Below are positions 322 through 53,990 of a DNA stretch of 62,578 bases, one piece after another. Where the stretch lies: positions 1 through 62,578 of the forward strand of contig JAPLKK010000035.1 of the NCBI GenBank assembly GCA_026388115.1, in the 5' to 3' direction. The translations under genes and the position numbers were made by a program. Position 1 is the first letter of the stretch. The number at the start of each line of letters is the position of its first letter. The notes beneath the pieces were generated by a model, which did no database searches, was not told the origin of the DNA, and saw only the letters and a program-made list of their open reading frames with translations. Source of the stretch: Elusimicrobiota bacterium. Its GTDB lineage: Bacteria > Elusimicrobiota > Elusimicrobia > UBA1565 > JACRDR01.

Positions 322-354
322 GTCCTTCCTAGGACCCAGTCCTCCCTAGGCCCA
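322..354 (+). repeat. Imperfect 17-bp direct repeat upstream of secreted protein gene
   Basis: GTCCTTCCTAGGACCCA (322-338) followed directly by GTCCTCCCTAGGCCCA (339-354); partial third copy GTCCTTCC at 302-309. Confidence 0.6.
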
Positions 355-1437: not shown

Positions 1438-2478
1438 ATGGCTGACAACGAGCATCTGGTGGACGGAAAGTATGCCATCGGGGACCTGGTGGATCTCTGC
1501 CGGCTCCAGGACGTCTTCGAGAAGTTCACGCTGGCGACCGGGTACACCATCGGGTTCCTGGATCATCCGGGTTTGAACATCCTTGCGGCGACGGGCTGGC
1601 GGGACATCTGTACGGAGTTCCACCGAGCCTGTCCCGCGTCGGCGGAGGTGTGCCGGAAGAGCAACGAGCATCTCCTCGAGGACCTGAACCAGCCGGGCGA
1701 GGTCGTCGTCGAGGAGTGCGAGCACGGGCTCGTGGACTGCGCGACCCCGATCATCATCAAGGGCAAACACGTCGCCAGCCTCGCCACCGGGCAGCTGCTG
1801 CTGCGCCCTCCCGACGACGAGCGCTTCAAGGGCCAGGCCCGCCGTTTCGGCTACGACAAGGAGAAATACCTCCGGGCTTTGTCGGAGGTCCCGGTGGTTT
1901 CCGCCGAGAAGCTGAAGGCCGTCACCGCTTTTCTCGGTGCGCTCGCGGGGATGATCTCTGAGCAGGGCTACGCGAGCCTGGCGGCGATGGCACGGGCAAA
2001 GGAGAGCCTGGATCGGGAGAGCGCCGAGCGGCGGAAGGCTGAGCAGCGGGCCGAACAGCTCAACAACGAGCTGCTCGTCTACTCGGCCCAGCTCGCCGAA
2101 TCCCGCGATTTCTTGTCGAGCATCATCGATTCCGTCGCGGACCCCATCTTCGTCAAGGACCGCCTCCACCGTTGGGTCCTGCTCAACAAGGCGTACTGCG
2201 AATTCATGGGATACACCCGCGAGGAGCTGATCGGCAAGAGCGATACCGATTTCTTCCCGAAGGAGGAGGCCGAGGTCTTCTGGGCGAAGGACGAGGAGGT
2301 CTTCAAGAGCGGCAAGACCAACGTCAACGAGGAGAAATTCACCGATTCCAAGGGGCGCCTCCACGTGATCGTGACCAAGAAGGAGCTGTATCGCGACGCG
2401 GAGGGCAAGGAATTCATCGTGGGCGTCATCCGCGACGTCACCGGCAGCAAGAGGGTTGAGGCAGGGCGCGTCAGCTAG
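1438..2478 (+). CDS. PocR sensory domain + coiled coil + PAS domain protein with no output domain
   Basis: PocR motifs 'DICTEFHR..C.KSN', 'CEHGLVDCATPIII.G.HVASLATGQ'; PAS 'DPIFVKDRLHRWVLLNKAYCEFMG...IRDVT'. Confidence 0.85.
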   Translation: MADNEHLVDGKYAIGDLVDLCRLQDVFEKFTLATGYTIGFLDHPGLNILAATGWRDICTEFHRACPASAEVCRKSNEHLLEDLNQPGEVVVEECEHGLVDCATPIIIKGKHVASLATGQLLLRPPDDERFKGQARRFGYDKEKYLRALSEVPVVSAEKLKAVTAFLGALAGMISEQGYASLAAMARAKESLDRESAERRKAEQRAEQLNNELLVYSAQLAESRDFLSSIIDSVADPIFVKDRLHRWVLLNKAYCEFMGYTREELIGKSDTDFFPKEEAEVFWAKDEEVFKSGKTNVNEEKFTDSKGRLHVIVTKKELYRDAEGKEFIVGVIRDVTGSKRVEAGRVS

Positions 2479-4075
2479 ACAGGCTCGAGCCGACGATCTT
2501 GACCGGAATCTCCGTCCCCGGGGCGGCCGGGATCATCAGCACGTCGTCCCCATCGAGGCGGAGCGCCGAGACCCCTTCGGGAACCTCGAAATCGACGTAA
2601 TGCGGGACCTCCCAATTCATCACGCGGGGCTCGGCCGCGGAACGCGCGGGGATGGTGAAGAAGACGCCATGGAGGTCGGGGTAGATGTCCTTGATGAAAG
2701 CCCCGCGCCCGCCGGTGAACTCGACGTAGGGCGTCGGCCCGGCCCGGAGCAGGCCGGTGCGGACGATCATCTTGAGTGTCTCCTCGTCTTTGATCCAGTG
2801 GCGGAAAAGGCGGCCGTTGGTGTCCAGGCGCTCGACGCGGGCCGGAACGCCGGAATATTCGGTGATGGTCTTGGTGTCGGTGTTCGCCAGGACGTTCGTC
2901 GCCTTCACGCCGGACGACTTCTTTTTCAATAGCGTCGCGACGGCCTTGGCGGTGGAGCGTTGGGCCGACTCCAGCAGCTGCGTGAGGCGGCTCTTTTCGC
3001 CGACCTTGCCGTAGTCGACGATCTGGACGGGCACGACGAGGTCCGGTCCCGGCCCGCCGCGAGCGTCCAGGCCCTGGACCATGTCCCGGTAGGCGCCGGG
3101 GTCCGCGCCTCCCAGCCACTTGCGGTACATGTCGGCGACCCATCTTTGGGTGCGGGCGGGAAGCGGCACTAGGAAGATGCTGCCCTTGTCGATCTCCAGC
3201 ACGGGCAGTTTCGCCGAGACCTTCACGTCCACGTAGTGGTCGAACTCCTTGCTCGGCACGCCGACCTGCTGGCCGTCCACTCCCGGTTTGGTGAGGAACA
3301 GTCCCGTCAGGTCCTTGAAGACCTTCTTGTGGACCCCGCGGACGAGGTCCACGTACGGGAGGAAGCCGTTCCATAGCCCCCCCGACTTGAGGATCCCCGC
3401 GAGCCCCTCGGCCGTCGTGTAATGCCGGAAGACGATCGCCTCGTGCTCCACCGCCTTCACGCGTTCAGGGACGCCGGCGACATCGACCATATCCGGATGG
3501 GACTCGGTATGGCCGGGGTTCAGGAGCTTCTCGGTCAAGGGGGCGGCTTTCAGCGACTCGATCCTGGCAAGGTTCGTGTCCGCCAGCTCCGCGACCGCGT
3601 CCACGCCGCCCGCTTCCGTCTTGCCGGAGGCTTGGTCGAGGACGAGTCCGACCAGCCGCGTGAGCTTTTCCTCCGGCATCGCACGGAGCTGCTGGGGGGT
3701 GAAATCCTTCAGCGTCGCGTTGACTGCTTCGAGCGTCCTGGCGGCCGGCTCGGGGGAGGCGGGCGCGGCGACTGCCGCCTCGGCGAGTCCCGCCATGGCG
3801 GGCCGGGCTCGCTCGACCAGGACGGCGGCGCGGCCGAGGTCGCGTGCGGCGGGGACGGGGTTCAGGGTCCCGATGACCGGGGCGGGCAGGGCTGTCGGGG
3901 ATTGCGGGCCGCTCAGGGCCGGCGCCGGAGCGGCGAGGCCGGGTAGAGCCCCGAGGACCGCGCCAAGGCGCGCTAGCGGCGTCGCCGCCGCGGTCCCGGC
4001 TTGCGGGGCGGCCTCGACTTGCGCGCAGCAAGGGGTGGCCGCGCCGAGGATCAAGCACAGTACCAGCCGCTTCAT
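2471..4075 (-). CDS. Secreted protein with Ala/Pro-rich leader and two tandem ADP-ribosyltransferase-like domains (putative)
   Basis: Signal peptide; internal duplication 'GVPERV..FRHYTT..G.L..G..PYV..DLTGLFLTKP..HYVD..PVQIV' / 'GVPARV..FRHWIK..GLL..G..PYV..DLHGVFFTIP..HYVD..PVKIV'. Confidence 0.8.
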   Translation of the reverse strand: MKRLVLCLILGAATPCCAQVEAAPQAGTAAATPLARLGAVLGALPGLAAPAPALSGPQSPTALPAPVIGTLNPVPAARDLGRAAVLVERARPAMAGLAEAAVAAPASPEPAARTLEAVNATLKDFTPQQLRAMPEEKLTRLVGLVLDQASGKTEAGGVDAVAELADTNLARIESLKAAPLTEKLLNPGHTESHPDMVDVAGVPERVKAVEHEAIVFRHYTTAEGLAGILKSGGLWNGFLPYVDLVRGVHKKVFKDLTGLFLTKPGVDGQQVGVPSKEFDHYVDVKVSAKLPVLEIDKGSIFLVPLPARTQRWVADMYRKWLGGADPGAYRDMVQGLDARGGPGPDLVVPVQIVDYGKVGEKSRLTQLLESAQRSTAKAVATLLKKKSSGVKATNVLANTDTKTITEYSGVPARVERLDTNGRLFRHWIKDEETLKMIVRTGLLRAGPTPYVEFTGGRGAFIKDIYPDLHGVFFTIPARSAAEPRVMNWEVPHYVDFEVPEGVSALRLDGDDVLMIPAAPGTEIPVKIVGSSLSS

Positions 4076-4189
4076 GGCATCAGTATGGCTCCACGGCGGC
4101 TCAAACGGCAGGGGCGACGGTCCTAAGGCGGGGAGGGCCCAATGGCGGTGCCGACGGCGGCTCGCTGGGACCGGAAGGGGGGGCGCCTT

Positions 4190-30214: not shown

Positions 30215-30844
30215 CTATTGCACCTGCTGCAGCAGCCGCTGCGCTTCGGACTGCGCCTGCCGGGAGGAATCCTCGGCGGCCGAGCTCTCCCGCTCGACGT
30301 CCCAGGCTTCCATGGAGAATCCGGCGCGGCGGATGTCCCAGCTCGCCCAATTCGCCTCGTTGCGGATCCACCCGGCCTCGGAGTTCAGCCTCTGGGCAGA
30401 GCCGACGAGGGCCCGGGCGGGCTGGACGAGGTCGGGGTCCTTCTGCTGGACCGAGCGCGCGATGCGCTGGATGTCGCGAGCCAGGTCGCCGACGACGCGG
30501 CTGAAGTCCCGCAGTTCCCACACGAGCCTCTGGATGTCGTTGCGCAGGAAGGGGTCGTTGTTCGGCTGGCCGGGGCCGCTCTGCGCGTGCTGCGCGCGTC
30601 GGCGGACGTCGGAGATGTCGCTGCGCAGGCGCCAAGCGTCCGAGGCGATGGAGTCCGCGTCGCGGGAAGCGCGGCCAATCTCCTGGGCCAGCTGCGCGTC
30701 CTTCGCCTGGACCTGCTCTGCCCGCGCTTTCAGGATGCCGTCGCGCGCGCCTGCGAGGGCGGCTTCAAAAGACGGGAGCGACTGGGCGCGGCCGGTGGCG
30801 GCCACGAAGACGAGGGCGGATGTCAGGAATAGAGAGTGACGCAT
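30215..30844 (-). CDS. Secreted helical/coiled-coil hypothetical protein
   Basis: GGAG SD; signal peptide MRHSLFLTSALVFVAATGRA; heptad pattern. Confidence 0.75.
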   Translation of the reverse strand: MRHSLFLTSALVFVAATGRAQSLPSFEAALAGARDGILKARAEQVQAKDAQLAQEIGRASRDADSIASDAWRLRSDISDVRRRAQHAQSGPGQPNNDPFLRNDIQRLVWELRDFSRVVGDLARDIQRIARSVQQKDPDLVQPARALVGSAQRLNSEAGWIRNEANWASWDIRRAGFSMEAWDVERESSAAEDSSRQAQSEAQRLLQQVQ

Positions 30845-30923
30845 CGGATCTCCGGTAAGGCTATCCATGAGAACATACCCTAAATCGCTGAGCCGGCCAG
30901 TCCCGTAAGCCCCGGCCGAAGCC

Positions 30924-31050
30924 GGGCCCTAAGACCCAGCTTGTCGTCAGCTCTTCCCGCCCGAAGTCCTCAGGCTCGCATTTGTTGGACGAGGATGGTC
31001 TCGGTAGGGAGTTAGGTCGAAGGGACCGGGAACTGTCGGCCCTAGGGCCC
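30924..31050. promoter_or_regulatory. Two copies of candidate palindromic motif GGGYCYTARGRCCC in a divergent promoter region
   Basis: GGGCCCTAAGACCC (30924-30937), CGGCCCTAGGGCCC (31037-31050); related copies at 4118, 50862 and half-sites at 330-354. Confidence 0.5.
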
Positions 31051-31132
31051 AAGACGGGATAGGCATTAAGAGGCCGGGATCCGCCCCCTTTCGGCTCAAT
31101 CGGCCGGGCGGCTATCGTGCTACCCTCGGGGC

Positions 31133-32557
31133 ATGAACTTGCGGAAGTTCTCAGCCCTTTTCGTCAGCCTCGCGATCACGACGTTCTCCGGCGGTACGCC
31201 CCTTTGGGCGCAAACCGTGCAAGCGGTGCGCGTGGCGCCTGTCGGAGCGCCTTCCGGAGCGGCCGCGGCCGCCGCGAACGTCGGGCCCTCCCTCTCGCTC
31301 TCCCCGGTCGCGAGCGTGAGCGTCGGCCTGAGCGCCATCGGGACGCCTCAGATCGTCCCGATCCACGGCTCGATCGGCACGCTGGGTCTCCTTCCTGCAA
31401 CGCAGATTCAGTCTCGCGCGGCCGCCGTCGGCAGCGAAGCCGCCCGGACCGCCGAAGCCGCCGCGACGATCGTTCCGGTCTCTCCTGCACAGCGGCTGAG
31501 TCTTTCTCCCTCTCCCGCGAAGCGGGAGAGGGCAGGGGTGAGGGCAGATAGCCGTTCCCTCGCGTCTTTCGTCACCGCCGCCGCCCTTTCCGCGAAAGTC
31601 TCGACGCCCAAGGCCGGCGCCTCGGTCAACGGCGAGCTTTCCGCCTTCTACGACGGCAGCGCGGTCCTTCGCGGAAACGTCGAAGCGGTCGGCACCGGCC
31701 AAGCCTCGCGGCTGACGCCGCAGAAGCTGTCCCGCGCCTCTTTGCGCTCCGAAGAGCGGACCGCCGCCGAGACGCCGCCCGCGCCGCGTTCGAGCTTCAG
31801 CCGCACGTTCAAGGTGGGCGCCGTCGGCGCCGCGCTGATGCTGTTCGTCAGCGAGGTCATCCCCGAAGCCGCCGCCGCTTTCTTTAAATACGCGCCGCAC
31901 CCCAACTATCAGGCGCCGGGCATGGAGGTCCAATCCGTCTTCGGGGCTATCGCGCTGATGACCGTGCTCTCGATCCTGGCTCCCATCAGCGAGGAGGCGA
32001 TCTTCCGCGGCGGGCTCATGCGCTGGCTTCGGGCGAAGACCGGCAGGTTCGCGGGAGAGATCGGCAGCTTCTGGATCCCCGCGCTGGTGAGCTCCGTCGT
32101 CTTCACGCTCCTGCATGAGACGGCCGACCCTGTGCTCATCGCCGCGCGCGTGCTCGGAGCCCTGGTGCTGGCCCGCGTCTACTACAAAGAGGGCGTCCTG
32201 GCCTCGATGGTGACGCACGGCGTCTTCAACGGCATCCTCGGCCTCGCGCTCATCGCCGGAGCCTTCCATCTGCCCATGGCGGGAGCCATCGGCCTTGGCG
32301 CGAGCGCGGTGAGCACCTTGATCTGGGCGGTGCGGAGCTTGTGGAAAGAGCGCGCCGCGCGCGCCTCCGGCGCGGTCGTCCCCGTCGGCATGACTCCCGC
32401 CATCGCGCGAACGCTCGCGACCGTCCTCTTCGTCGGCACCGCGCTGGTCGCCATGTGGGGAGGGCTCTCGCTGGCCGTGGGCGGCGGCATCATTTGGATC
32501 CCCGCCGCCTTTGGGCTGCGCTACTGGGCGCGCAAGCGCGAAGAAGCCGCCGGCTGA
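31133..32557 (+). CDS. CPBP (Abi/CAAX) family intramembrane metalloprotease with long Ala/Ser/Pro-rich N-terminal extension
   Basis: 'APISEEAIFRG', 'FTLLHE', 'TH..FN' motifs; multiple TM helices. Confidence 0.9.
   Translation: MNLRKFSALFVSLAITTFSGGTPLWAQTVQAVRVAPVGAPSGAAAAAANVGPSLSLSPVASVSVGLSAIGTPQIVPIHGSIGTLGLLPATQIQSRAAAVGSEAARTAEAAATIVPVSPAQRLSLSPSPAKRERAGVRADSRSLASFVTAAALSAKVSTPKAGASVNGELSAFYDGSAVLRGNVEAVGTGQASRLTPQKLSRASLRSEERTAAETPPAPRSSFSRTFKVGAVGAALMLFVSEVIPEAAAAFFKYAPHPNYQAPGMEVQSVFGAIALMTVLSILAPISEEAIFRGGLMRWLRAKTGRFAGEIGSFWIPALVSSVVFTLLHETADPVLIAARVLGALVLARVYYKEGVLASMVTHGVFNGILGLALIAGAFHLPMAGAIGLGASAVSTLIWAVRSLWKERAARASGAVVPVGMTPAIARTLATVLFVGTALVAMWGGLSLAVGGGIIWIPAAFGLRYWARKREEAAG
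31504..31546. repeat. REP-like element type A inside CDS
   Basis: 42/43 nt identical to the reverse complement of 60165-60207; translated as SPSPAKRERAGVRA. Confidence 0.9.
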
Positions 32558-45618: not shown

Positions 45619-47717
45619 GCGCGGAAGCGAGGGAGCGGTCGGCGCTGATCGTGGCGGAGCGCTTGTTGTGGCGCGCGCGCAGGCCGCCTTTGGCGCGTGA
45701 GGCCGAAAAGGCGGTCCGTCGCAGATTGGGGCCCGGCGGTCCGGCGAAGGTGCTGGCTTTCGAGCGCTGGCTCATAGAGCAGGCGCGCGCGGAGGGGGCC
45801 GGTTTGGCTGCCTTGGCGGGCGCCGAGCCGCTGGGAGACGGCGGCGGCGAAGACGCGGAGGCGGCCGCGCTCGCGGCGGCGGACTTGTCGCGGTGGCTCG
45901 CGGACCTGGCTGTGCTGTACGGAGTTTCAACCGAGCCGTCTTGCTGGCGGCCTCGGCTCGCGCTGTCGAGTCCGCAGGCCAAGCCGCCTTCGGACGCCTG
46001 GCGCTTGGGCCCGACGGCGCGGCCGGTGGAGGCGCCTTCCGAGCTGCTACAGCTATTCCTTCAGCGCCTGTTCGGGCTCGAGGACTTCAGGCCCGGCCAA
46101 GCGGAGGCCCTGGAGCGGGTGCTCACGGGTCACGACACCCTGCTCGTGCTCGCGACCGGCGCGGGCAAGTCGCTGGTGTTCCAACTCGCCGGGCTCCTGC
46201 TTCCGGGGACCTGCCTCGTCATCGAGCCGACGATCTCCTTGATCGAGGACCAGCGCGGGCGGCTGGCGCGCCTGGGCGTCACGTCGGCGATCGCGCTGAC
46301 GAGCGAGCCGCGCTCCTTGGAGCGGCGCAGGCGCGACTACGCCGACCTGGCGGCGGGGCGCGCCCATTTCTGCTTTGCCGCGCCCGAGCGTCTTCAGACG
46401 GATTCCTTTCGAGCGGTCTTGCGTCGGGTCGCCGCTGGAGGCGGCCTGAGCCTTGTCGTGGTCGACGAGGCGCATTGCGTGAGCGAGTGGGGGCATGATT
46501 TCCGTCCGAGCTACCTGACGGCGGCGGCGAGCGCCCGCCGCATCGCCGCCGCCGTCGCCCAGGCGCCGGCGCTCTTGGCCGTGACGGCGACCGTGAGCGA
46601 GGACGCCCTTCCCGAGACGCGCCAGGCGCTCGGGCTGGCGCCGGAAGCCCTCGTCGCGCCTCACGGCCTGCGCGTTGCGCGGCCCGAGCTTTCGCTGCGC
46701 GTGCGCGCCTGCGCCGATGCGGACAAGCCGCGAGAGCTGGCGCGCATCATCCGCCGCGGACCGCTGCTGCGTCCCCGCAAGCGCGCGAGCGCCTGCGGCA
46801 TCGTCTTTTGCCCGCACGTGGACGGCCCGTTCGGGGCCCGCACGGTGGCCTCCGAGCTCCGGGCGCGCGGCTGGCCCGCCGAGATCTATCACGGCCGGCC
46901 GCCGCGCGGCCTGGATGCGGACACCTGGGCCGGATGCCGCCGCGAGACGGCGGAGCGGTTCTTGCGCAACAGGTCCACTCTGCTTGCGGCGACCAAGGCT
47001 TTCGGCATCGGCATCGACAAGCCCAATATCCGCTGGACGGTCCATTACGGTCTTCCGGCCGGGCTCGAAGCCTTCGAGCAGGAGTCGGGCCGCGCCGGCC
47101 GCGACGGCCGGCCGGCCGACTGCTGGGTCCTGTGCTCGGTGCGCGACGCCAAGCGTGCCCGGCGGTGGCTCTCGGGTCGCTCGCCCTGCGAAGCGCTGCA
47201 GGGCGAGCTGGAGCGCCTGACCCGCGCGCGGCAAGATGACGTCTCGCGCGCGTTGTCCATGCACCTGGGCGCCTTCCCGGGGGTCGACCGCGAGCTCGAC
47301 GACGCCCTGCAGGTGCTGGCCCGGCTCGGCGACTGGCGCCAGGCCGGCGTCCGGGTCGTCCGCATGCCCTTCCAAAGCCGGCCGCTCGTGGAGAAGGCAT
47401 TGTACCGTTGGTCCTGCCTCGGCGTCGTTTTCGACTACACGGTCCTATGGAGGGAGCAGGCCTTCCTCGTCCGCATGGCGGGGACCGACAAAGCCGGTCT
47501 CGCCCGGCGCCTGGGCGGCTACCTCGAGGGCCTGGGGGCTCATGCGCCCGGGCAGCTCGAGCTCTTCGAGCCTGGGGCGGCGCTACGCGCGCTGCTGGAG
47601 GGCGTGTACTCGGTGATCGAGCGCCGGCGCAGGGCGTCTTTGGCGCGGATGCTGGAGCTGTGCTACTCGAGCGAGGTGTCGTGGCCGGTGACGGCCTTCG
47701 CGACCTGCTCGAAGTAG
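45615..47717 (+). CDS. RecQ-family ATP-dependent DNA helicase, atypical C-terminus
   Basis: 'TGAGKSL', 'DEAHCVSEWGHDFRPSY', 'ATKAFG.GIDKP', 'QESGRAGRDG'. Confidence 0.9.
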   Translation: MSAEARERSALIVAERLLWRARRPPLAREAEKAVRRRLGPGGPAKVLAFERWLIEQARAEGAGLAALAGAEPLGDGGGEDAEAAALAAADLSRWLADLAVLYGVSTEPSCWRPRLALSSPQAKPPSDAWRLGPTARPVEAPSELLQLFLQRLFGLEDFRPGQAEALERVLTGHDTLLVLATGAGKSLVFQLAGLLLPGTCLVIEPTISLIEDQRGRLARLGVTSAIALTSEPRSLERRRRDYADLAAGRAHFCFAAPERLQTDSFRAVLRRVAAGGGLSLVVVDEAHCVSEWGHDFRPSYLTAAASARRIAAAVAQAPALLAVTATVSEDALPETRQALGLAPEALVAPHGLRVARPELSLRVRACADADKPRELARIIRRGPLLRPRKRASACGIVFCPHVDGPFGARTVASELRARGWPAEIYHGRPPRGLDADTWAGCRRETAERFLRNRSTLLAATKAFGIGIDKPNIRWTVHYGLPAGLEAFEQESGRAGRDGRPADCWVLCSVRDAKRARRWLSGRSPCEALQGELERLTRARQDDVSRALSMHLGAFPGVDRELDDALQVLARLGDWRQAGVRVVRMPFQSRPLVEKALYRWSCLGVVFDYTVLWREQAFLVRMAGTDKAGLARRLGGYLEGLGAHAPGQLELFEPGAALRALLEGVYSVIERRRRASLARMLELCYSSEVSWPVTAFATCSK

Positions 47718-50700
47718 GTGTGCATCGCCGCCGTCGGCGGCTTCGCAGGCTTCAGCGGCTCCCAGCCCCAATCGAAGATCATGTCGAAGAACGCCTGGTA
47801 GGCCGCGATCATCGGGTCGTCGACGAAGAAGCTCGCGTTGTCGAAGTTGTTGTTCTCGGCGTTGGGCGTGTAGTTGTACGAGCCGGTCTCCAGCAGGCGC
47901 CCGTCGACGATCATCATCTTGTTGTGCATCTTCTCGAACATCGGGCTGCCGTCTATGTTGGGGCCGGGAACGATGCGCACGTCGAAGCCGTGGTAGGCGA
48001 AGAACTCGTCGAGCTTCATGAGCTTGGACTGGCCTTCGTCGAGGGCGAGCCGGACCTTGATCCCGCGCTCCTTGGCGGCCAACAGCGCGTCCGCGATCGG
48101 CTGGGAGTAGAAGCTGAACATCGCGACGTCGATCGAGAGCTTGGCGGCCTCGATGGCGCGCACCAGGTTCTCCTCGACCATCCCCGCCGGCGATACGGCC
48201 GAGCGGGGGAACTTCTGCCCGTTGAACTCGAGCGCTTGGTCTTCATCCACCGGGGCGTTCCCCGGCTTATGGTTCTTCCAGTCGTAGTTCTTGGCTTTCT
48301 CCACCGGCACCGCCGCGTCCCACAGGTACTGGTGGTACTTCTGGTAGAAGGCGACGCGCTTGGCGTCGTCGGAGAAGAAGATGTTCTCGAAGTGGTAGTT
48401 CTCGGCGGTCACGGACCAGTTGAAGGAGCCGGCCTCGAGGATCTTTCCGTCGAAGACCGCGAACTTGTTGTGCATGACGCCGGTCGAGTGCAGGCCCTTG
48501 ACCGTGCGGACGTCGAAGCCGTCGTCGATGAGCGCCTGGATCTGCTCGCTGCGCTGGCGCGCCGCGCCGGTGTGGTCGAGGCCCGAGGGGAAGACGTGGG
48601 TGAAATCGATGACGATCGAGACCTTCACGCCGCGGCGCTTGGCGTCCTTGAGCGCGTCGAGAAGCTGCGGCTCGGTGAACTCGTAGAGGGCGATCTGGAT
48701 GGTCTGGCGCGCGGCGTGGATCGCCGAGGCGATGATGCCGGCCACCGGGTGCTGGGGCTTGACCGCGTATGCCGGCAGGGTCTCGCCGTTGAAGGGGATC
48801 TTGCGCGCCTCGGGCAGCGGCCCCCATTGCGGCGGGGCCGGCGGAGGCTCGGGAGCCACCTGCAGCTCTTTGATGAGTTCCTCGTCGTCCGGCAGCTTCG
48901 GCTCTTTCGCCGGGTCCGCGACGAAGCCGCCGGAGCGGTTCTTCCAGAGATCGTCGAAGAAGGCCTGGTATGCCTTGGCGTCCGTCTTGTCGGTGGTGAA
49001 GCTGCCGTTCTCGAAGTTGAACTGGACCGCGTTCTTCGTGAAGTTCATGGAGCCGGTCTCGACGAGCTTGCCGTCGAGCACCATGAACTTGTTGTGGTCC
49101 TTCTCCGCCCATTCCGGACCGTTCGGGTCGGGCCCGCCGAGGACGCGCACCTTCACGCCGTTGTAGGCCAGCCAGTCGCGGTAGGGTTTCACCGCGTCGG
49201 AGTCGTTCTGGCTCTGATCCAGGATGACGCGGACCCTCACGCCGCGCTCCTTGGCGCGCAGGAGCGCCTTGGCGATCTTGGTCGAGCGCAGGGTGAACAT
49301 CGTCAGGTCGAGCGTCTCTTGCGCCGCGTCGATCGCCTTGACGATCCAGTCCTCGGAGGCGGGGTTCGGGTTGAAGAAGTAGGTCGGGAGCACGACGGCG
49401 TTGAAGCGCACCGAGGGCCGGTCGTCCTGCGGCGGGACCGGCATCTGCGTCGGCCACTCGTTGGCGCGGGCCTTGGCGAAGGGCACGCTCGCCTGGCGCA
49501 GGTAATCCCAGTATTTCTGGAAGCCCTCGACGTGCTTGGCGTCGTCGGTGAACTTGGCGTTCTCGAAATGGTGGTCTTCCGCGGTCCAGGAATAGTTATA
49601 GGACCCGAACTCGGCCACCTTGCCGTCGAACACCATGAACTTGTTGTGCTGGATGCCGTAGCGGTACATCCCGCGCAAGATCGTCACGTCGAAGCCGCCG
49701 TCCAGCAGCGACTGGATCTCCGTCGAGCGGTGCGGCTTGTATTTGGAATCGTCGCGGGGATTGGGGAAGACGTTGGTGTAGTCGAGGACGATCTTGATCT
49801 CCACGCCGCGGTCGCGCGCCCGGCGCAGCGCCTTGACGATCTCGCGGTCCTTCATCTCATAGGCTGCTATAAGGAGAGACTTCTTCGTCGCGTCGATGGC
49901 CTGGACGATGAGTGGGGAGACCGGCCGGTCCGGCCGCATCGCGACCGAGGGCAGGACGGCGTCGTTGAGGCGGACGTCGCGCGCGGGGTACTGCGGGTCG
50001 GGGGTTTCCTCGCCGTCGTTCGCTCCCGGCTTCGGCTTGGCCTTCTTGTGCCCCGGCTTGGTGCCGATGCCGCCCGGAGTGCGCGCAAAGCTGGCGATCG
50101 TGTTCGGAAGATCGACGGAAAGGGGGTCGAAGCCCTCGCCTTCCAGGCCCGGCATGGCGTCGACGCCGATGCCGCCGGGGTTCTTGATCCGCATCGCGCC
50201 CAAAGAGAGCGGGTTGCCGTCCTCGGCGTCGACGCCCAGCTTGGCGTCGAAATGGTGCTCGGCCTGCGCCCGCGTGTCGTCGGCGCTTGCGAGCGGGTCC
50301 GGCGCGCGGAAGGGGGCCGCCAAGCGGCCGATGCCGGGCAGCGCCGCGGCGGCCTGGCGCACGCCCGCCAGGGCTTGGGCCACCAGCGCCAGCGGGGAAT
50401 TCGCGACGCGGGCGGCTTCGGAACGTTGGGCGGCGCCGGCGGCGAGCGCGGCGGGGGCAGCGGCCGGCTCTGCGGCTGCGGCGACGCGAGAGTTTGTGGC
50501 GGCGGAGCCCGCGATGGAGGCGGGCAAAGCCAGGTTCTGCGCCGCTCCGACAAGGTTGACCGCCTGTACGCTCGGGGAGACCGGAGCCAGCGTCGCGGGG
50601 TTGAGAGGGAGTGCCGTCGCCGCGCCGGGCGCCGCGATCGGAGCCGCGCCCACGGCCGAGACTCCGGCCGCCGGTCCGGCGGTCACCGACTGCGAGACGG

Positions 50701-50779
50701 TCTGCGCGCAGAGAGGGCCGGGCAGGACGATGCACCAGCAAAGCAGTGCGGATAGCCGACGCGCGAGCGGGCTGTCCAT
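47663..50779 (-). CDS. Secreted phospholipase D superfamily (Nuc-like) protein with four HKD domains
   Basis: HNKFMVFD, HNKFMVLD, HNKFAVFD, HNKMMIVD, each followed by GS.N and a (H/N)F(E/D)N motif; signal peptide. Confidence 0.92.
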   Translation of the reverse strand: MDSPLARRLSALLCWCIVLPGPLCAQTVSQSVTAGPAAGVSAVGAAPIAAPGAATALPLNPATLAPVSPSVQAVNLVGAAQNLALPASIAGSAATNSRVAAAAEPAAAPAALAAGAAQRSEAARVANSPLALVAQALAGVRQAAAALPGIGRLAAPFRAPDPLASADDTRAQAEHHFDAKLGVDAEDGNPLSLGAMRIKNPGGIGVDAMPGLEGEGFDPLSVDLPNTIASFARTPGGIGTKPGHKKAKPKPGANDGEETPDPQYPARDVRLNDAVLPSVAMRPDRPVSPLIVQAIDATKKSLLIAAYEMKDREIVKALRRARDRGVEIKIVLDYTNVFPNPRDDSKYKPHRSTEIQSLLDGGFDVTILRGMYRYGIQHNKFMVFDGKVAEFGSYNYSWTAEDHHFENAKFTDDAKHVEGFQKYWDYLRQASVPFAKARANEWPTQMPVPPQDDRPSVRFNAVVLPTYFFNPNPASEDWIVKAIDAAQETLDLTMFTLRSTKIAKALLRAKERGVRVRVILDQSQNDSDAVKPYRDWLAYNGVKVRVLGGPDPNGPEWAEKDHNKFMVLDGKLVETGSMNFTKNAVQFNFENGSFTTDKTDAKAYQAFFDDLWKNRSGGFVADPAKEPKLPDDEELIKELQVAPEPPPAPPQWGPLPEARKIPFNGETLPAYAVKPQHPVAGIIASAIHAARQTIQIALYEFTEPQLLDALKDAKRRGVKVSIVIDFTHVFPSGLDHTGAARQRSEQIQALIDDGFDVRTVKGLHSTGVMHNKFAVFDGKILEAGSFNWSVTAENYHFENIFFSDDAKRVAFYQKYHQYLWDAAVPVEKAKNYDWKNHKPGNAPVDEDQALEFNGQKFPRSAVSPAGMVEENLVRAIEAAKLSIDVAMFSFYSQPIADALLAAKERGIKVRLALDEGQSKLMKLDEFFAYHGFDVRIVPGPNIDGSPMFEKMHNKMMIVDGRLLETGSYNYTPNAENNNFDNASFFVDDPMIAAYQAFFDMIFDWGWEPLKPAKPPTAAMHTYFEQVAKAVTGHDTSLE

Positions 50780-51101
50780 GCTGGCAGTTTAGCTCCGGCC
50801 CCGCGGGCGCTATAGCGGCTTTAGGCCCAAGGAAGGTCAGGCAGGGGACCTAGCTGCTCCTGGGCCTTAGGGCTTTGTTCGCGGGCGAGGCTTTTCTAAA
50901 TAAGGCCGATGGGAGCCGTCGTGCTGCGCGAGATCTTCTCGTGCTCCGCCCTTGCCGGGCCCTTGGCCTTCAACAGACACTAATAGATGACACGCAATAA
51001 CATTCAGCCGATTTAATCTGGACTCGATGCGTGATGCGTTTGTTTCTCCGTACGCGCGCGTACGAGCGCATCGCGTTTTCTCGACGAGAAGATGACGGTG
51101 T

Positions 51102-51185: not shown

Positions 51186-53990
51186 ATGGGCCGCCGAGCC
51201 GCCGTTCTGGACCGCCGTTTGCCGTCTTCCGCCATAGGTCTTCGGGTCCCCCGCCGCTTCACCACCAGCCGCCACGGCGCCCTGGACGCCGTCGAATGGG
51301 AGAAGCGTCCCTCGGTCATCGCGGGAGCGGACGGCGTCGACGTCTTCCGCATGGACGAGGTCGAGGTGCCGCGCTTCTGGTCCCAGCTTTCCACCGACAT
51401 CGCGGCCTCGAAGTATCTGCGCAAGACCGGCGTGCCCGCCGGCGGCGCGGAGACCAGCGTCCGCCAGCTTTTCGAGCGCGTGTCCGTCACCATCGCCGAC
51501 GCGGGCGAGAACCTGGGCTACTTCGCCTCCAAGGCCGACGCCCAGGCTTTCGAGGCGGAGCTCGAGTACATGCTCGTGCACCAGATCGGGGCGTTCAACT
51601 CGCCGGTCTTCTTCAACGTCGGGCTCTTCCACCGCTACGGCATCACCGGCACGGGCGGCAACTGGTATTGGGACCCCAAGCGCGAGCAGATCGTCCAGTC
51701 CTCCGACGCCTACTCGCATCCCCAGGCCTCGGCCTGCTTCATCCAATCGCTCGACGACCATCTGACCTCCATCTTCGAGCTCGCCAAGAACGAGGCCCGC
51801 ATCTTTAAGTACGGCTCCGGCTCGGGGACGAACTTCTCGAAGATCCGCTCCCGGCATGAGCGCATCTCCGGCGGCGGCACCGCCTCCGGCCTGATGTTCT
51901 TCCTCGAGGTGCTCGACAAGGGCGCGGGCGCGATCAAGTCGGGCGGCGTGGCGCGGCGCGCCGCGAAGATGGTCGTGCTCGATATGGACCATCCCGAGAT
52001 CGAGGATTTCATCCAGTGGAAGAGCCGCGAGGAGAAGAAGGTCGCGGTCCTCATCGCGGCGGGCTACCCGTCGGATTTCAACGGCGAGGCCTACCGCACC
52101 GTCAGCGGCCAGAACTCGAACAACTCGGTCCGCGTCTCGGACGCCTTCATGCAGGCCGCCTTGACCGGCGGGAAATGGTGGACGCGCGAGCGCACCAGCG
52201 GCAAGCCGGTCAAGGAGTACGACGCGCGCCAGCTCTTGAACGCCGTCAGCCATGCCGCATGGTCCTGCGCGGACCCCGGCGTCCAGTTCGACGACACGAT
52301 CAACGCCTCGCACACCTGCTTGTCCACCGACCGCGTCCGGGCGAGCAACCCTTGCAGCGAGTTCATGTTCCTCGACGACTCGGCCTGCAACCTCGCCTCG
52401 CTCAACCTCGTGAAGTTCATGCAGGCCGACGGCGGCTTCGACGTCGAGGGCTTCCGCCACGCCGCGCGCATCTTCTTCATGGCCCAGGAGATCCTCGTCG
52501 AGTTCGGCTCCTATCCGACCCAGCGCATCGCGCAGAACTCGCACGACTATCGGCCGCTCGGCCTCGGCTACGCGAACCTCGGCACGATGCTCATGATGAG
52601 CGGGCTTCCCTATGACTCGGAGCAGGCCCGCGCGGTCTGCGGCGCGGTCACTGCGATCCTCACCGGGCAAGCCTATAAGGTGAGCGCGGAGCTGGCGCGG
52701 GTGAAGGGCCCGTTCCCGGGACTCGCGAAGAACCGGGACGCGATGCTGGGCGTCATGGCCAAGCATCGGGCGGCGGTGGACAAGATCGACGCCAAGCTGT
52801 GCCCGCCGGCGTTGTTGGAGGCCGCGCGCCGGGACTGGGACTCGGCGATCGAGCAGGGCGGCGTCAACGGATACCGCAACGCCCAGGCGACCGTGCTCGC
52901 GCCGACCGGCACCATCGGCCTCTTGATGGGCTGCGACACTACCGGCATCGAGCCGGAGTTCGCGCTCGTCAAGGTCAAGAAGCTCGCCGGCGGCGGCACG
53001 CTGCGCATCGCCAACGAGTCCGTCGGCGCGGCGCTGACGCGCCTCGGCTACGGGGCCGCGCAGGTGGACGCCGTCCTCAAGCACGTCTCGCGAACGGGCG
53101 CCATCGACGGCGCGCCGGGGCTCAAGACGGAGCATCTGCCGGTGTTCGACTGCGCCAACCCCTCCATGGCCGGCGGCCGCTTCATCGAGCCGATGGGCCA
53201 CGTGCGGATGATGGCCGCCGCCCAGCCGTTCATCTCCGGGGCCATCTCGAAGACGGTGAACCTGCCGCACCAAACGACCGTCCAGGACATCGAGCGCATC
53301 TACGTCGAGTCGTGGAAGCTGGGCTTGAAGGCCGTCTCGGTGTACCGCGACGGGTGCAAGCTCTCTCAGCCGTTGAGCGCGGCCGGCGCCAAGAAGGCGG
53401 CGGCCCCGGCCGTCCCTGCCGGGCCGAAGCGCTCCGAGCGCCAGCACCTGCCGCAGCGGCGCTCGGGATTCACGCAGGAGCTCAAGCTCGGCGGCCAGAA
53501 GTTCTACTTGCGCACCGGGGAGTACGCGGACGGCCGCCTGGGGGAGGTCTTCCTCGACGGCGGAAAGCCGGGGTCGCCCTTGAGGAGCATGCTGTGCGCT
53601 TGGGCCACCACGCTTTCGCTGGCGCTGCAGTACGGAGCGCCGCTCGAGGAGATGCTCGACCGGATCACCTTCATCCGTTTCGAGCCATCGGGGCCGGTCC
53701 AGCATCCTCACGTCAAGCAGGCGAGCTCGATCTTGGACCTGACGGCCCGCATCCTGGCTATCGAGTATCTCGGCCGCAACGACCTCGCGCACGTCAAGCC
53801 CAGCAAGCGCGGCAAGGGCAGGGCCAAGGCCCAGCCGGCGCCCGTGCTCGTCTACGGCAACGTCATCGACGATGAGCTGGGCAAGCTCATGGGCGACGCG
53901 CCCCTGTGCGACACCTGCGGCCACCTCACCGTCCGCAACGGCACTTGCTACAAGTGCATCAACTGCGGCAACTCGATGGGCTGTTCCTGA
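51186..53990 (+). CDS. nrdJ: Vitamin B12-dependent (class II) ribonucleotide reductase with C-terminal TSCPD-like and Zn-ribbon region
   Basis: 'AFNSP', 'SACFI', 'NPCSE...CNLAS', 'RPLGLGYANLG', 'APTGTIG', 'ISKTVN', 'YRDG.K..QPL', terminal C..C...C..C. Confidence 0.96.
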   Translation: MGRRAAVLDRRLPSSAIGLRVPRRFTTSRHGALDAVEWEKRPSVIAGADGVDVFRMDEVEVPRFWSQLSTDIAASKYLRKTGVPAGGAETSVRQLFERVSVTIADAGENLGYFASKADAQAFEAELEYMLVHQIGAFNSPVFFNVGLFHRYGITGTGGNWYWDPKREQIVQSSDAYSHPQASACFIQSLDDHLTSIFELAKNEARIFKYGSGSGTNFSKIRSRHERISGGGTASGLMFFLEVLDKGAGAIKSGGVARRAAKMVVLDMDHPEIEDFIQWKSREEKKVAVLIAAGYPSDFNGEAYRTVSGQNSNNSVRVSDAFMQAALTGGKWWTRERTSGKPVKEYDARQLLNAVSHAAWSCADPGVQFDDTINASHTCLSTDRVRASNPCSEFMFLDDSACNLASLNLVKFMQADGGFDVEGFRHAARIFFMAQEILVEFGSYPTQRIAQNSHDYRPLGLGYANLGTMLMMSGLPYDSEQARAVCGAVTAILTGQAYKVSAELARVKGPFPGLAKNRDAMLGVMAKHRAAVDKIDAKLCPPALLEAARRDWDSAIEQGGVNGYRNAQATVLAPTGTIGLLMGCDTTGIEPEFALVKVKKLAGGGTLRIANESVGAALTRLGYGAAQVDAVLKHVSRTGAIDGAPGLKTEHLPVFDCANPSMAGGRFIEPMGHVRMMAAAQPFISGAISKTVNLPHQTTVQDIERIYVESWKLGLKAVSVYRDGCKLSQPLSAAGAKKAAAPAVPAGPKRSERQHLPQRRSGFTQELKLGGQKFYLRTGEYADGRLGEVFLDGGKPGSPLRSMLCAWATTLSLALQYGAPLEEMLDRITFIRFEPSGPVQHPHVKQASSILDLTARILAIEYLGRNDLAHVKPSKRGKGRAKAQPAPVLVYGNVIDDELGKLMGDAPLCDTCGHLTVRNGTCYKCINCGNSMGCS

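Follow-up and report, generated by a model that had tools for sequence, protein, structure and literature searches.

Bacterial activators of the CRP and LuxR types bind as dimers to a site that overlaps the upstream side of a poor -35 region and to another site farther upstream; CRP and FNR use sites at -41.5 and -61.5, and the boxes of LuxR and TraR lie at about -42.5 and -65. NarL recognizes the heptamer TACYYMT in pairs of inverted halves separated by 2 base pairs (bp), the 7-2-7 arrangement. In Mycobacterium tuberculosis, the Dev boxes of DevR/DosR are palindromes of 18-20 bp with a G-rich half-site (PMC3177182, PMC13486717); DevR binds the half-site GGGACT and requires tandem boxes, which lie at -42.5 and -63.5 (PMC3177182). 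The consensus of GerE is RWWTRGGYN2YY (PMC2695774). A full-text literature search found no paper describing regulatory motifs in Elusimicrobia. In this study, we analyzed a palindrome that recurs between genes in a stretch of 62,578 nucleotides (nt) from an Elusimicrobiota bacterium (contig JAPLKK010000035.1, here C61:1-62578; the whole stretch is called the window), and throughout the genome to which the window belongs. This palindrome is probably the operator of a dimeric transcription factor, most likely an activator, that would govern a regulon of exported proteins across the class Elusimicrobia.

The original prediction had proposed a 14-base palindrome, together with a handful of related words in the window, as the operator of a dimeric regulator that controls a set of exported enzymes. 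Every word it quoted was found in the window at the position given, and the palindrome held up in a modified form: the 14-mer represents the inner 14 bases of a site with two-fold symmetry, which is 16 bp long, ends in T and A, and has a WW centre that is not strictly TA. To count such sites, the genome (4.15 Mb in 286 contigs, with 67% guanine plus cytosine, GC) was divided by crude codon-usage gene calls into 3,299 genes, which left 87% of it coding, and 525 kb of intergenic DNA, for which chance expectations were taken from Markov simulations of order 1, 3 and 5. In this intergenic DNA, GGGYCYTARGRCCC is found 3 times without mismatch, 11 times with one and 18 times with two, where about 0.05, 1 and 10 copies are expected; 14 copies with at most one mismatch thus compare with about one by chance. 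The pattern GG.CCTAGG.CC has 13 intergenic copies against 0.6 expected, and a listing of all GGnC[CT]-WW-[AG]GnCC words showed that the intergenic copies bear the T/A ends.

Iterative refinement of a position weight matrix (PWM) led to the site TRGGnCC-WW-GGnCCYA, or c-T-R-G-G-n-C-C-W-W-G-G-n-C-C-Y-A-g with its flanking bases. It is an inverted repeat of two 7-bp halves with a 2-bp gap, with GGnCC units 7 bp apart and CC-WW-GG, at the centre, as its best-conserved part. At 14 bits or more, the PWM finds 89 intergenic sites (2.3 in simulated DNA) and 7 in 3.6 Mb of coding DNA, which amounts to 0.17 per kb of intergenic against 0.002 per kb of coding sequence; at 13 bits or more, the numbers are 107, 4.6 and 15, respectively. 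Far from occurring at background frequency or being scattered at random over coding DNA, the motif is enriched and almost exclusively intergenic. Because the PWM was built on the same intergenic DNA that was later scanned, its low-scoring hits are inflated, whereas the exact-word counts, for which no trained matrix was used, are unaffected by this circularity. In fact, the exact word TRGGNCCWWGGNCCYA has 15 copies in the genome, and its reversed control word has none. The flanks of all 294 intergenic TAGGNCC words are uninformative; therefore, the signal resides in the paired units and not in a single word. One coding false positive was noted, a one-mismatch copy of the 14-mer (G000 C50:6602) inside a cold-shock gene that the gene caller had missed.

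The placement of the sites bears out the claim that they are intergenic and lie upstream of genes. The 107 sites at 13 bits or more fall in 83 intergenic regions, 58 of them between tandem genes, 41 between divergent genes, 7 at contig edges, and only one between convergent genes. Counted from predicted start codons, site centres accumulate at 41-47 nt (15 sites), 64-70 nt (22 sites) and 88-94 nt (9 sites) before the ATG, where a uniform distribution would give 4.5 in each interval. Neighbouring sites are most often spaced by 24 bp (19 pairs at 24 bp, 5 at 23 bp, and about 10 at 46-50 bp), forming ladders of up to 3-4 sites centred about 43, 67 and 91 nt (in some cases also 115 nt) before the start codon. 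A partner copy, usually the weaker one, stands 24 bp nearer the gene for 59% of the -67 sites, and at other offsets for 0-14%. The alignment of 24 promoters reads TAGGCCcTTgGGCCCAg-N8-cTGG.CCcTt.GgCcCT, followed by about 25 unconserved bases and cTAt. The motif promoters have a -10 box of the sigma-70 type (TAnnCT) and no evident -35 box, their -35 match being no better than background (n=16), and their start codons follow 6-9 nt after the -10-like hexamer. Since the -10-like box ends so close to the start codon, these genes probably give leaderless mRNAs; start-codon distances would then equal distances to the transcription start, which would place the boxes at about -43 and -67. The -10 boxes of the motif promoters (TA..CT) also appear weaker than those of other leaderless-type promoters, although with n=16 this is weak evidence. 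Ordinary leaderless-type promoters of this organism carry an extended -10 element (tg.TAtAAT), and GCTAGAAT and GCTATACT are enriched intergenic words. The most strongly over-represented intergenic 8-mers are GGGAGAGG and CCTCTCCC, with about 210 copies against 32 expected; the AT-richer words TCAACTTAT, GTCTGACAC and GTACGAATG (about 40 against 4) look like one or more families of dispersed repeats.

The original prediction had linked the palindrome to exported enzymes on the basis of a handful of genes. The exported character of the set stands, and many secreted hydrolases belong to it, but the regulon is considerably larger, with about 80 promoters. When targets were defined as genes that start no more than 150 nt downstream of a site, 83 genes were obtained, 71 of which (about 85%) have a signal-peptide-like N-terminal segment, compared with 43% of all genes (p = 5e-16). 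With a stricter signal-peptide rule, the proportions are 51% and 23% (p = 3e-8). Several of the 12 exceptions are start-codon miscalls or the partner gene of a divergent region. The association is not a by-product of leaderless promoters, as leaderless-type genes that lack the motif reach only 52% and 29% by the two rules. Promoter duplication within a gene family and a mobile repeat can both be excluded as the source of the pattern, since most targets (69 of 83) lack a paralogue among the others and each site, outside one small cluster, has flanks of its own.

Pfam identities were obtained from sampled targets. They include an S8 subtilase (one of four paralogues among the targets), a GH25 muramidase and a papain-family (C1) protease, each with one paralogue in the set, an SLT lytic transglycosylase, an NlpC/P60 endopeptidase, endonuclease I and a dual-specificity phosphatase; the window adds a protein with four phospholipase D (PLD)-like domains and a CPBP/Rce1-type protease. 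Many other targets match no protein family. Some features of these proteins are recorded here as observations. In very many of the predicted signal peptides, the last residues are A-x-A and the next one is Gln (..AQ..), for example in the products starting at 31133 and 30844 of the window, which recalls the N-terminal pyroglutamate ‘Q-rule’ described for Bacteroidetes. Many of the small targets have an F-[DE] motif within about 10 residues after the signal peptide (IDFDQ, PDFEA, PSFEAAL). The motif also precedes the gene of a small membrane protein (MDFVRFMFCLGVGLIG.../MRFVLCLGFGLFG...) both in G000 (C60:9292-9582) and in a second genome, G011 (L100), which makes this protein a candidate for a core regulon kept across genomes. 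The single cluster with shared flanks consists of the site regions C116:772-796, C177:10364 and C192:16459-16483, which have 63-80 nt of flank in common at about 90% identity and are a small repeated promoter cassette or a mobile piece that carries the predicted operator.

The motif is conserved beyond this genome even though there is no close relative, the best same-family match of the CPBP protease being only 38% identical. As whole-genome pattern counts with one mismatch proved too noisy, the exact 16-mer, which worked better across genomes, was used for comparison. It has 15 copies here, 0-16 per genome in the same order, 0-4 in other families of the class, and none in about 110 genomes from other classes of the phylum, while the reversed control is close to zero in all groups. 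In three genomes from two other families of the order, 20 sites lie 63-68 nt (sometimes 42 or 91-94 nt) before signal-peptide genes and stand behind -10-like boxes. Another 20 sites, from small genomes of distant families with 42-60% GC, form the same 24-bp tandems before signal-peptide genes, and this GC-rich word keeps its promoter positions even in genomes of other families with 43% GC. In the distant small genomes, many of these sites are followed by a Shine-Dalgarno leader, and the ATG then lies farther away by a corresponding amount; this fits boxes anchored at the transcription start rather than at the ATG. In one complete genome (G096, a single contig of 1,643,562 bp), two loci (about 553,600-553,700 and 946,400-946,490) carry signal-peptide genes preceded by boxes at a spacing of exactly 24 bp, with the proximal box about 43-45 nt upstream of the transcription start predicted from candidate -10 boxes, the second locus being less certain. 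At the level of sequence, the tandem-box architecture is conserved across families of the class, and its persistence, together with that of the motif, in the promoters of relatives strengthens the case for a regulatory site. In two small genomes, an orthologous locus (L114, G164:C5:16780-17795; L118, G181:C8:15426-16441) has two strong sites 70 bp apart, flanked by a conserved non-secreted protein of 93 amino acids (MKQILNWCK...) and a membrane protein.

With these features in hand, the system can be compared with those introduced above. With DevR it shares a palindrome of similar length and a G-rich half-site (GGGACT there, TRGGnCC here, with one site in this genome reading TAGGACTAAAGTCCTA), at least two tandem boxes as the rule, a proximal box that would lie near -42.5 and abut the -35 position, the pairing of a stronger primary box with a weaker secondary one, a reach of tens of promoters, and a candidate regulator from the same protein family. 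In contrast to DevR, the ladders can reach as far as -91 and -115, the predicted targets encode secreted hydrolases and not dormancy functions, and the organism belongs to another phylum. The 7-2-7 layout is common to the NarL sites and the site described here, although the NarL heptamer differs in sequence from the half-site TRGGnCC. The core of the half-site, TRGGY, also forms the core of the GerE consensus (PMC2695774), which is a resemblance only; neither the regulon content nor the fixed 24-bp ladder of this system has been described for NarL/GerE proteins. Sites of the CRP/LuxR type are placed in the same manner with respect to a poor -35 region and a further upstream site, but the centre of a CRP-type site is unconserved, whereas CC-WW-GG is the best-conserved part here. 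LiaR/VraR, CpxR and sigma-E each control many envelope or exported proteins through one regulator; they respond to envelope damage and induce mainly repair functions and chaperones. The targets found here are instead degradative enzymes and many secreted proteins without known function, and the operator sequence is unrelated.

The symmetric site, its promoter-side location and the exported targets all support the proposed operator of a dimeric regulator. We propose a scheme with two dimers, like that of DevR/DosR and other activators of the NarL/LuxR type. The stronger distal box at about -67 would recruit a first dimer, which would help a second one onto the weaker box at about -43; the latter, abutting the -35 region, would then contact RNA polymerase. 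The best candidate for the binding protein is a NarL/LuxR-family response regulator encoded outside the window (C271:44602-45327, C271_241), and we give it a slightly less than even chance of being the protein that binds the operator. Its gene lies downstream of genes for a dCache-HAMP histidine kinase and a REC-HisKA-HATPase hybrid kinase; on this reading, an extracellular signal would, through this regulator, switch on the secreted-enzyme set together. The pairing with the preceding REC-histidine-kinase gene is kept both here and in a small genome, the dCache-HAMP kinase being found upstream here. There are six REC+GerE response regulators in this genome and only two in the motif-bearing small genomes; one of these two is about 70% identical to C271_241, and the other has 38% identity to its best match here. 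Almost every genome of families f1-f5 and f8 has an orthologue of C271_241, at 65-94% identity; elsewhere in the phylum it is absent or reaches at most 51% identity. In G096, the orthologue is encoded at 1,292,625-1,293,299. Families of the class that have the regulator contain 122 motif matches against 77 for the control word, whereas those without it show no excess (28 against 40). Among solved structures, its nearest relatives are VraR/LiaR, NarL and DevR, with a DNA-binding domain closest to that of VraR/LiaR.

Other binding proteins were considered and set aside. The OmpR-type regulator C123_2198 has a 17.5-bit site 49 nt upstream of its gene, but no full-length orthologue is present in the motif-bearing small genomes (f4), and the GGnCC units lie 7 bp apart and are not direct repeats of about 11 bp like OmpR/PhoB boxes. 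A CRP/FNR site, a 5-N6-5 or 5-N4-5 palindrome whose centre is unconserved, is rejected because the centre CC-WW-GG is the most conserved part of this motif, and because a search of G080, G105 and G164 gave no hit to a CRP-type domain above the cut-off of the family. LysR-type regulators use a T-N11-A dyad near -65 and a degenerate site near -35; the dyad here would be T-N14-A, the ladder exceeds two sites, and no LysR DNA-binding domain was found in the same three genomes.

Several points weigh against the reading of an activator operator bound by this regulator. Activation is deduced from position only, and the leaderless status and the -43/-67 coordinates depend on -10-like hexamers and crude gene calls. 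The 24-bp spacing corresponds to 2.3 helical turns, compared with the in-phase 21 bp of DevR, and the two strongest sites of the window itself occupy the -89.5 rung or a non-canonical position at -61/-62, without a textbook -43/-67 pair. The assignment of the regulator is circumstantial, since any class-restricted protein would share its clade-level distribution; the known sites of VraR/LiaR look different; no site was found in the 6 kb around the regulator operon, which gives no sign of autoregulation; and two genomes (G084 and G179) carry the regulator at 70-75% identity and have no motif match with one mismatch or fewer. The survey of regulators covered four families (GerE, OmpR, CRP and LysR).

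These last points bear on the possibility that the operator is bound by a protein of another family, such as a ribbon-helix-helix, MraZ/AbrB-like, Xre or MerR protein, which we consider a serious competitor, though a somewhat weaker proposition than the NarL-type regulator itself. Ribbon-helix-helix repressors such as omega and MetJ bind tandem boxes of 7 or 8 bp, which GGnCC, a 5-bp palindrome repeated at 7 bp, resembles. A 17-bit site also lies 200 nt upstream of mraZ (G000 C39:10942), at a non-canonical position, but MraZ is widespread in bacteria and the motif is confined to one class. On the other side stand the unusual conservation of the response regulator, which retains about 70% identity between genomes of 43% and 67% GC, the 7-2-7 palindromes, tandem boxes and proximal box near -42.5, which are hallmarks of NarL/LuxR activators (PMC3177182), and the TRGGY core shared with GerE (PMC2695774). 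The same operator might alternatively be bound by a repressor or silencer that keeps the secreted-enzyme genes off until a signal releases it, for example a protein that blocks RNA polymerase from making its upstream contacts or that spreads over the 24-bp ladder. Ladders of 3-4 sites are compatible with cooperative spreading, and a weak -35 is no mark of these promoters in particular, since the organism's promoters in general have a good -35 match in only 23% of cases (9% at control offsets). We nevertheless regard repression as unlikely, because very few site centres fall within 40 nt of the ATG, so that the -10 box and the start region are avoided, because the proximal box abuts the -35 position and does not cover the -10 box, and because the weaker -10 boxes of the motif promoters are typical of activator dependence.

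It is far less probable still that the motif is a -35-type element for an alternative sigma factor, similar to the extracytoplasmic function (ECF) type, dedicated to envelope and secreted proteins. The fixed distance to the start codon, the missing canonical -35 box and the envelope-related targets would suit such a factor. A 16-mer with two-fold symmetry, found in either orientation and repeated in tandem every 24 bp, would not; moreover, some 23 bp separate its promoter-proximal edge from the -10 box, more than a -35 element allows, and the -10 box itself is sigma-70-like (TAnnnT). A sigma-54 promoter is likewise rejected, as there is no GG-N10-GC/TTGC signature and the motif is symmetric. 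The notion of a compositional accident, a hairpin or terminator, or a repeat resembling repetitive extragenic palindromes (REP) or miniature inverted-repeat transposable elements (MITE) is refuted by positional, functional and phylogenetic evidence. It is true that the intergenic DNA of GC-rich genomes is in general richer in words containing TA, and that the C116/C177/C192 cluster shares its flanks; however, the enrichment over Markov expectation is 14-fold to 40-fold, flanks are otherwise unique, convergent regions are avoided, and promoter positions are kept in the 43% GC genomes. The site is not a hairpin, since its two halves do not have complementary central n bases; the window, scanned for known RNAs, gave 0 Rfam matches and 0 tRNA.

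In the window, three of the six words or word pairs listed by the original prediction correspond to full sites (Table 1). Those at 4118 and 50821 are weak or half-sites that are nevertheless canonically placed, while the tandem half-sites at 330-353 are not supported, and neither is a half-site near 55785 that had been called weak for a GH57 gene and scores below 5 bits. The site at 31036, centred at 31043.5, lies 89.5 nt before the start codon of the protease gene and forms the third rung of a ladder, of which the weak site at 31013 would be the fourth, at about -112. The -10-like hexamer in front of this gene implies a leaderless mRNA for the CPBP protease; an exact-protein look-up for near-identical strains found none. 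On the opposite strand, the site at 30923 (centre 30930.5) does not quite match the ladder, with distances of 62.5 nt to ATG 30868 and 86.5 nt to ATG 30844; it precedes the small secreted protein, whose signal peptide MRHSLFLTSALVFVAATGRAQS begins at ATG 30844. Before the PLD gene, the full site is centred at 50868.5, which is 89.5 nt from ATG 50779, with a TAAACT -10-like box 6 nt before this ATG. The divergent region between the PLD gene and nrdJ holds a further weak site of 6.1 bits, GCCGGGCCCTTGGCCTTCAA, on the nrdJ side (50954-50973). The product of nrdJ (51186-53990), a class II ribonucleotide reductase, has its top relatives, with at most 63% identity, scattered across Elusimicrobiales, Woesearchaeota, Nitrospiria, Planctomycetia and Bdellovibrionota, which suggests horizontal transfer of this gene.

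Table 1. Palindrome-related words, predicted operator sites, -10-like boxes and putative target genes in the window (scores from the PWM).
Feature	Position	Strand	Details
Words TAGGACCCA / TAGGCCCA of the original prediction	330-353		Right-half-like; <1 bit as full sites
Putative target gene, 534-amino-acid protein	2471..4075	-	No Pfam match
Weak proximal site with CGGTCCTAAGG	4110..4125		8.1 bits; centre 42.5 nt from ATG 4075, canonical proximal position
Word CGGTCCTAAGGCGG of the original prediction	4118		Present
Putative target gene, small secreted protein	30215..30868	-	No Pfam match
-10-like box TAGGGT	30877-30882		Before the minus-strand gene of the small secreted protein
Predicted full operator site CGGGCCCTAAGACCCA	30923..30938		15.4 bits; 20-bp span 30921-30940
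Word GGGCCCTAAGACCC of the original prediction	30924-30937		Present
Weak site TAGGTCGAAGGGACCG	31013..31028		7.8 bits; 23 bp upstream of the 31036 site
Predicted full operator site TCGGCCCTAGGGCCCA	31036..31051		17.6 bits; 20-bp span 31034-31053
Word CGGCCCTAGGGCCC of the original prediction	31037-31050		Present
-10-like hexamer TACCCT	31121..31126	+	6 nt before ATG 31133
Putative target gene, Rce1/CPBP-type intramembrane protease with signal peptide	31133..32557	+	Pfam; signal-peptide rule
Putative target gene, secreted protein with four PLD-like domains	47663..50779	-	Pfam
Weak proximal half-site with TTTAGGCCCA	50814..50829		4.1 bits; centre 42.5 nt from ATG 50779, canonical -43
Word TTAGGCCCA of the original prediction	50821		Half-site, exactly 42.5 nt from ATG 50779
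Predicted full operator site TGGGCCTTAGGGCTTT	50861..50876		16.4 bits; 20-bp span 50859-50878
Word GGGCCTTAGGGCTT of the original prediction	50862		Present

The operator of an exported-protein regulon may be part of a larger design, which we offer as a speculative and, as a whole, rather unlikely extension. A conserved phosphorelay, running from the dCache kinase through the REC-kinase hybrid to the NarL-type regulator, would switch the entire degradative secretome of the Elusimicrobia on and off as a unit. The set would comprise subtilases, papain-like proteases, lysozymes, peptidoglycan hydrolases, a nuclease, a phospholipase D and dozens of exported proteins without known function, all expressed from a dedicated class of promoters that would be leaderless, without a -35 box, and preceded by out-of-phase 24-bp ladders. 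As these ladders are out of phase, a new mode of oligomeric assembly on DNA would be implied. If true, this would reveal an inducible programme of attack or scavenging in a phylum of barely known ecology.

The predicted regulon of about 80 promoters has a precise grammar and extends over families whose genomes range from 43% to 67% GC, and the analysis supplies one concrete candidate for its regulator and signalling pathway. Together, the motif and its position provide a computational marker for sets of exported effectors in the metagenome-assembled genomes of the class. Dozens of ‘hypothetical’ secreted proteins are joined with lytic enzymes in one predicted co-regulated set, which would help to show how these organisms act on their environment.

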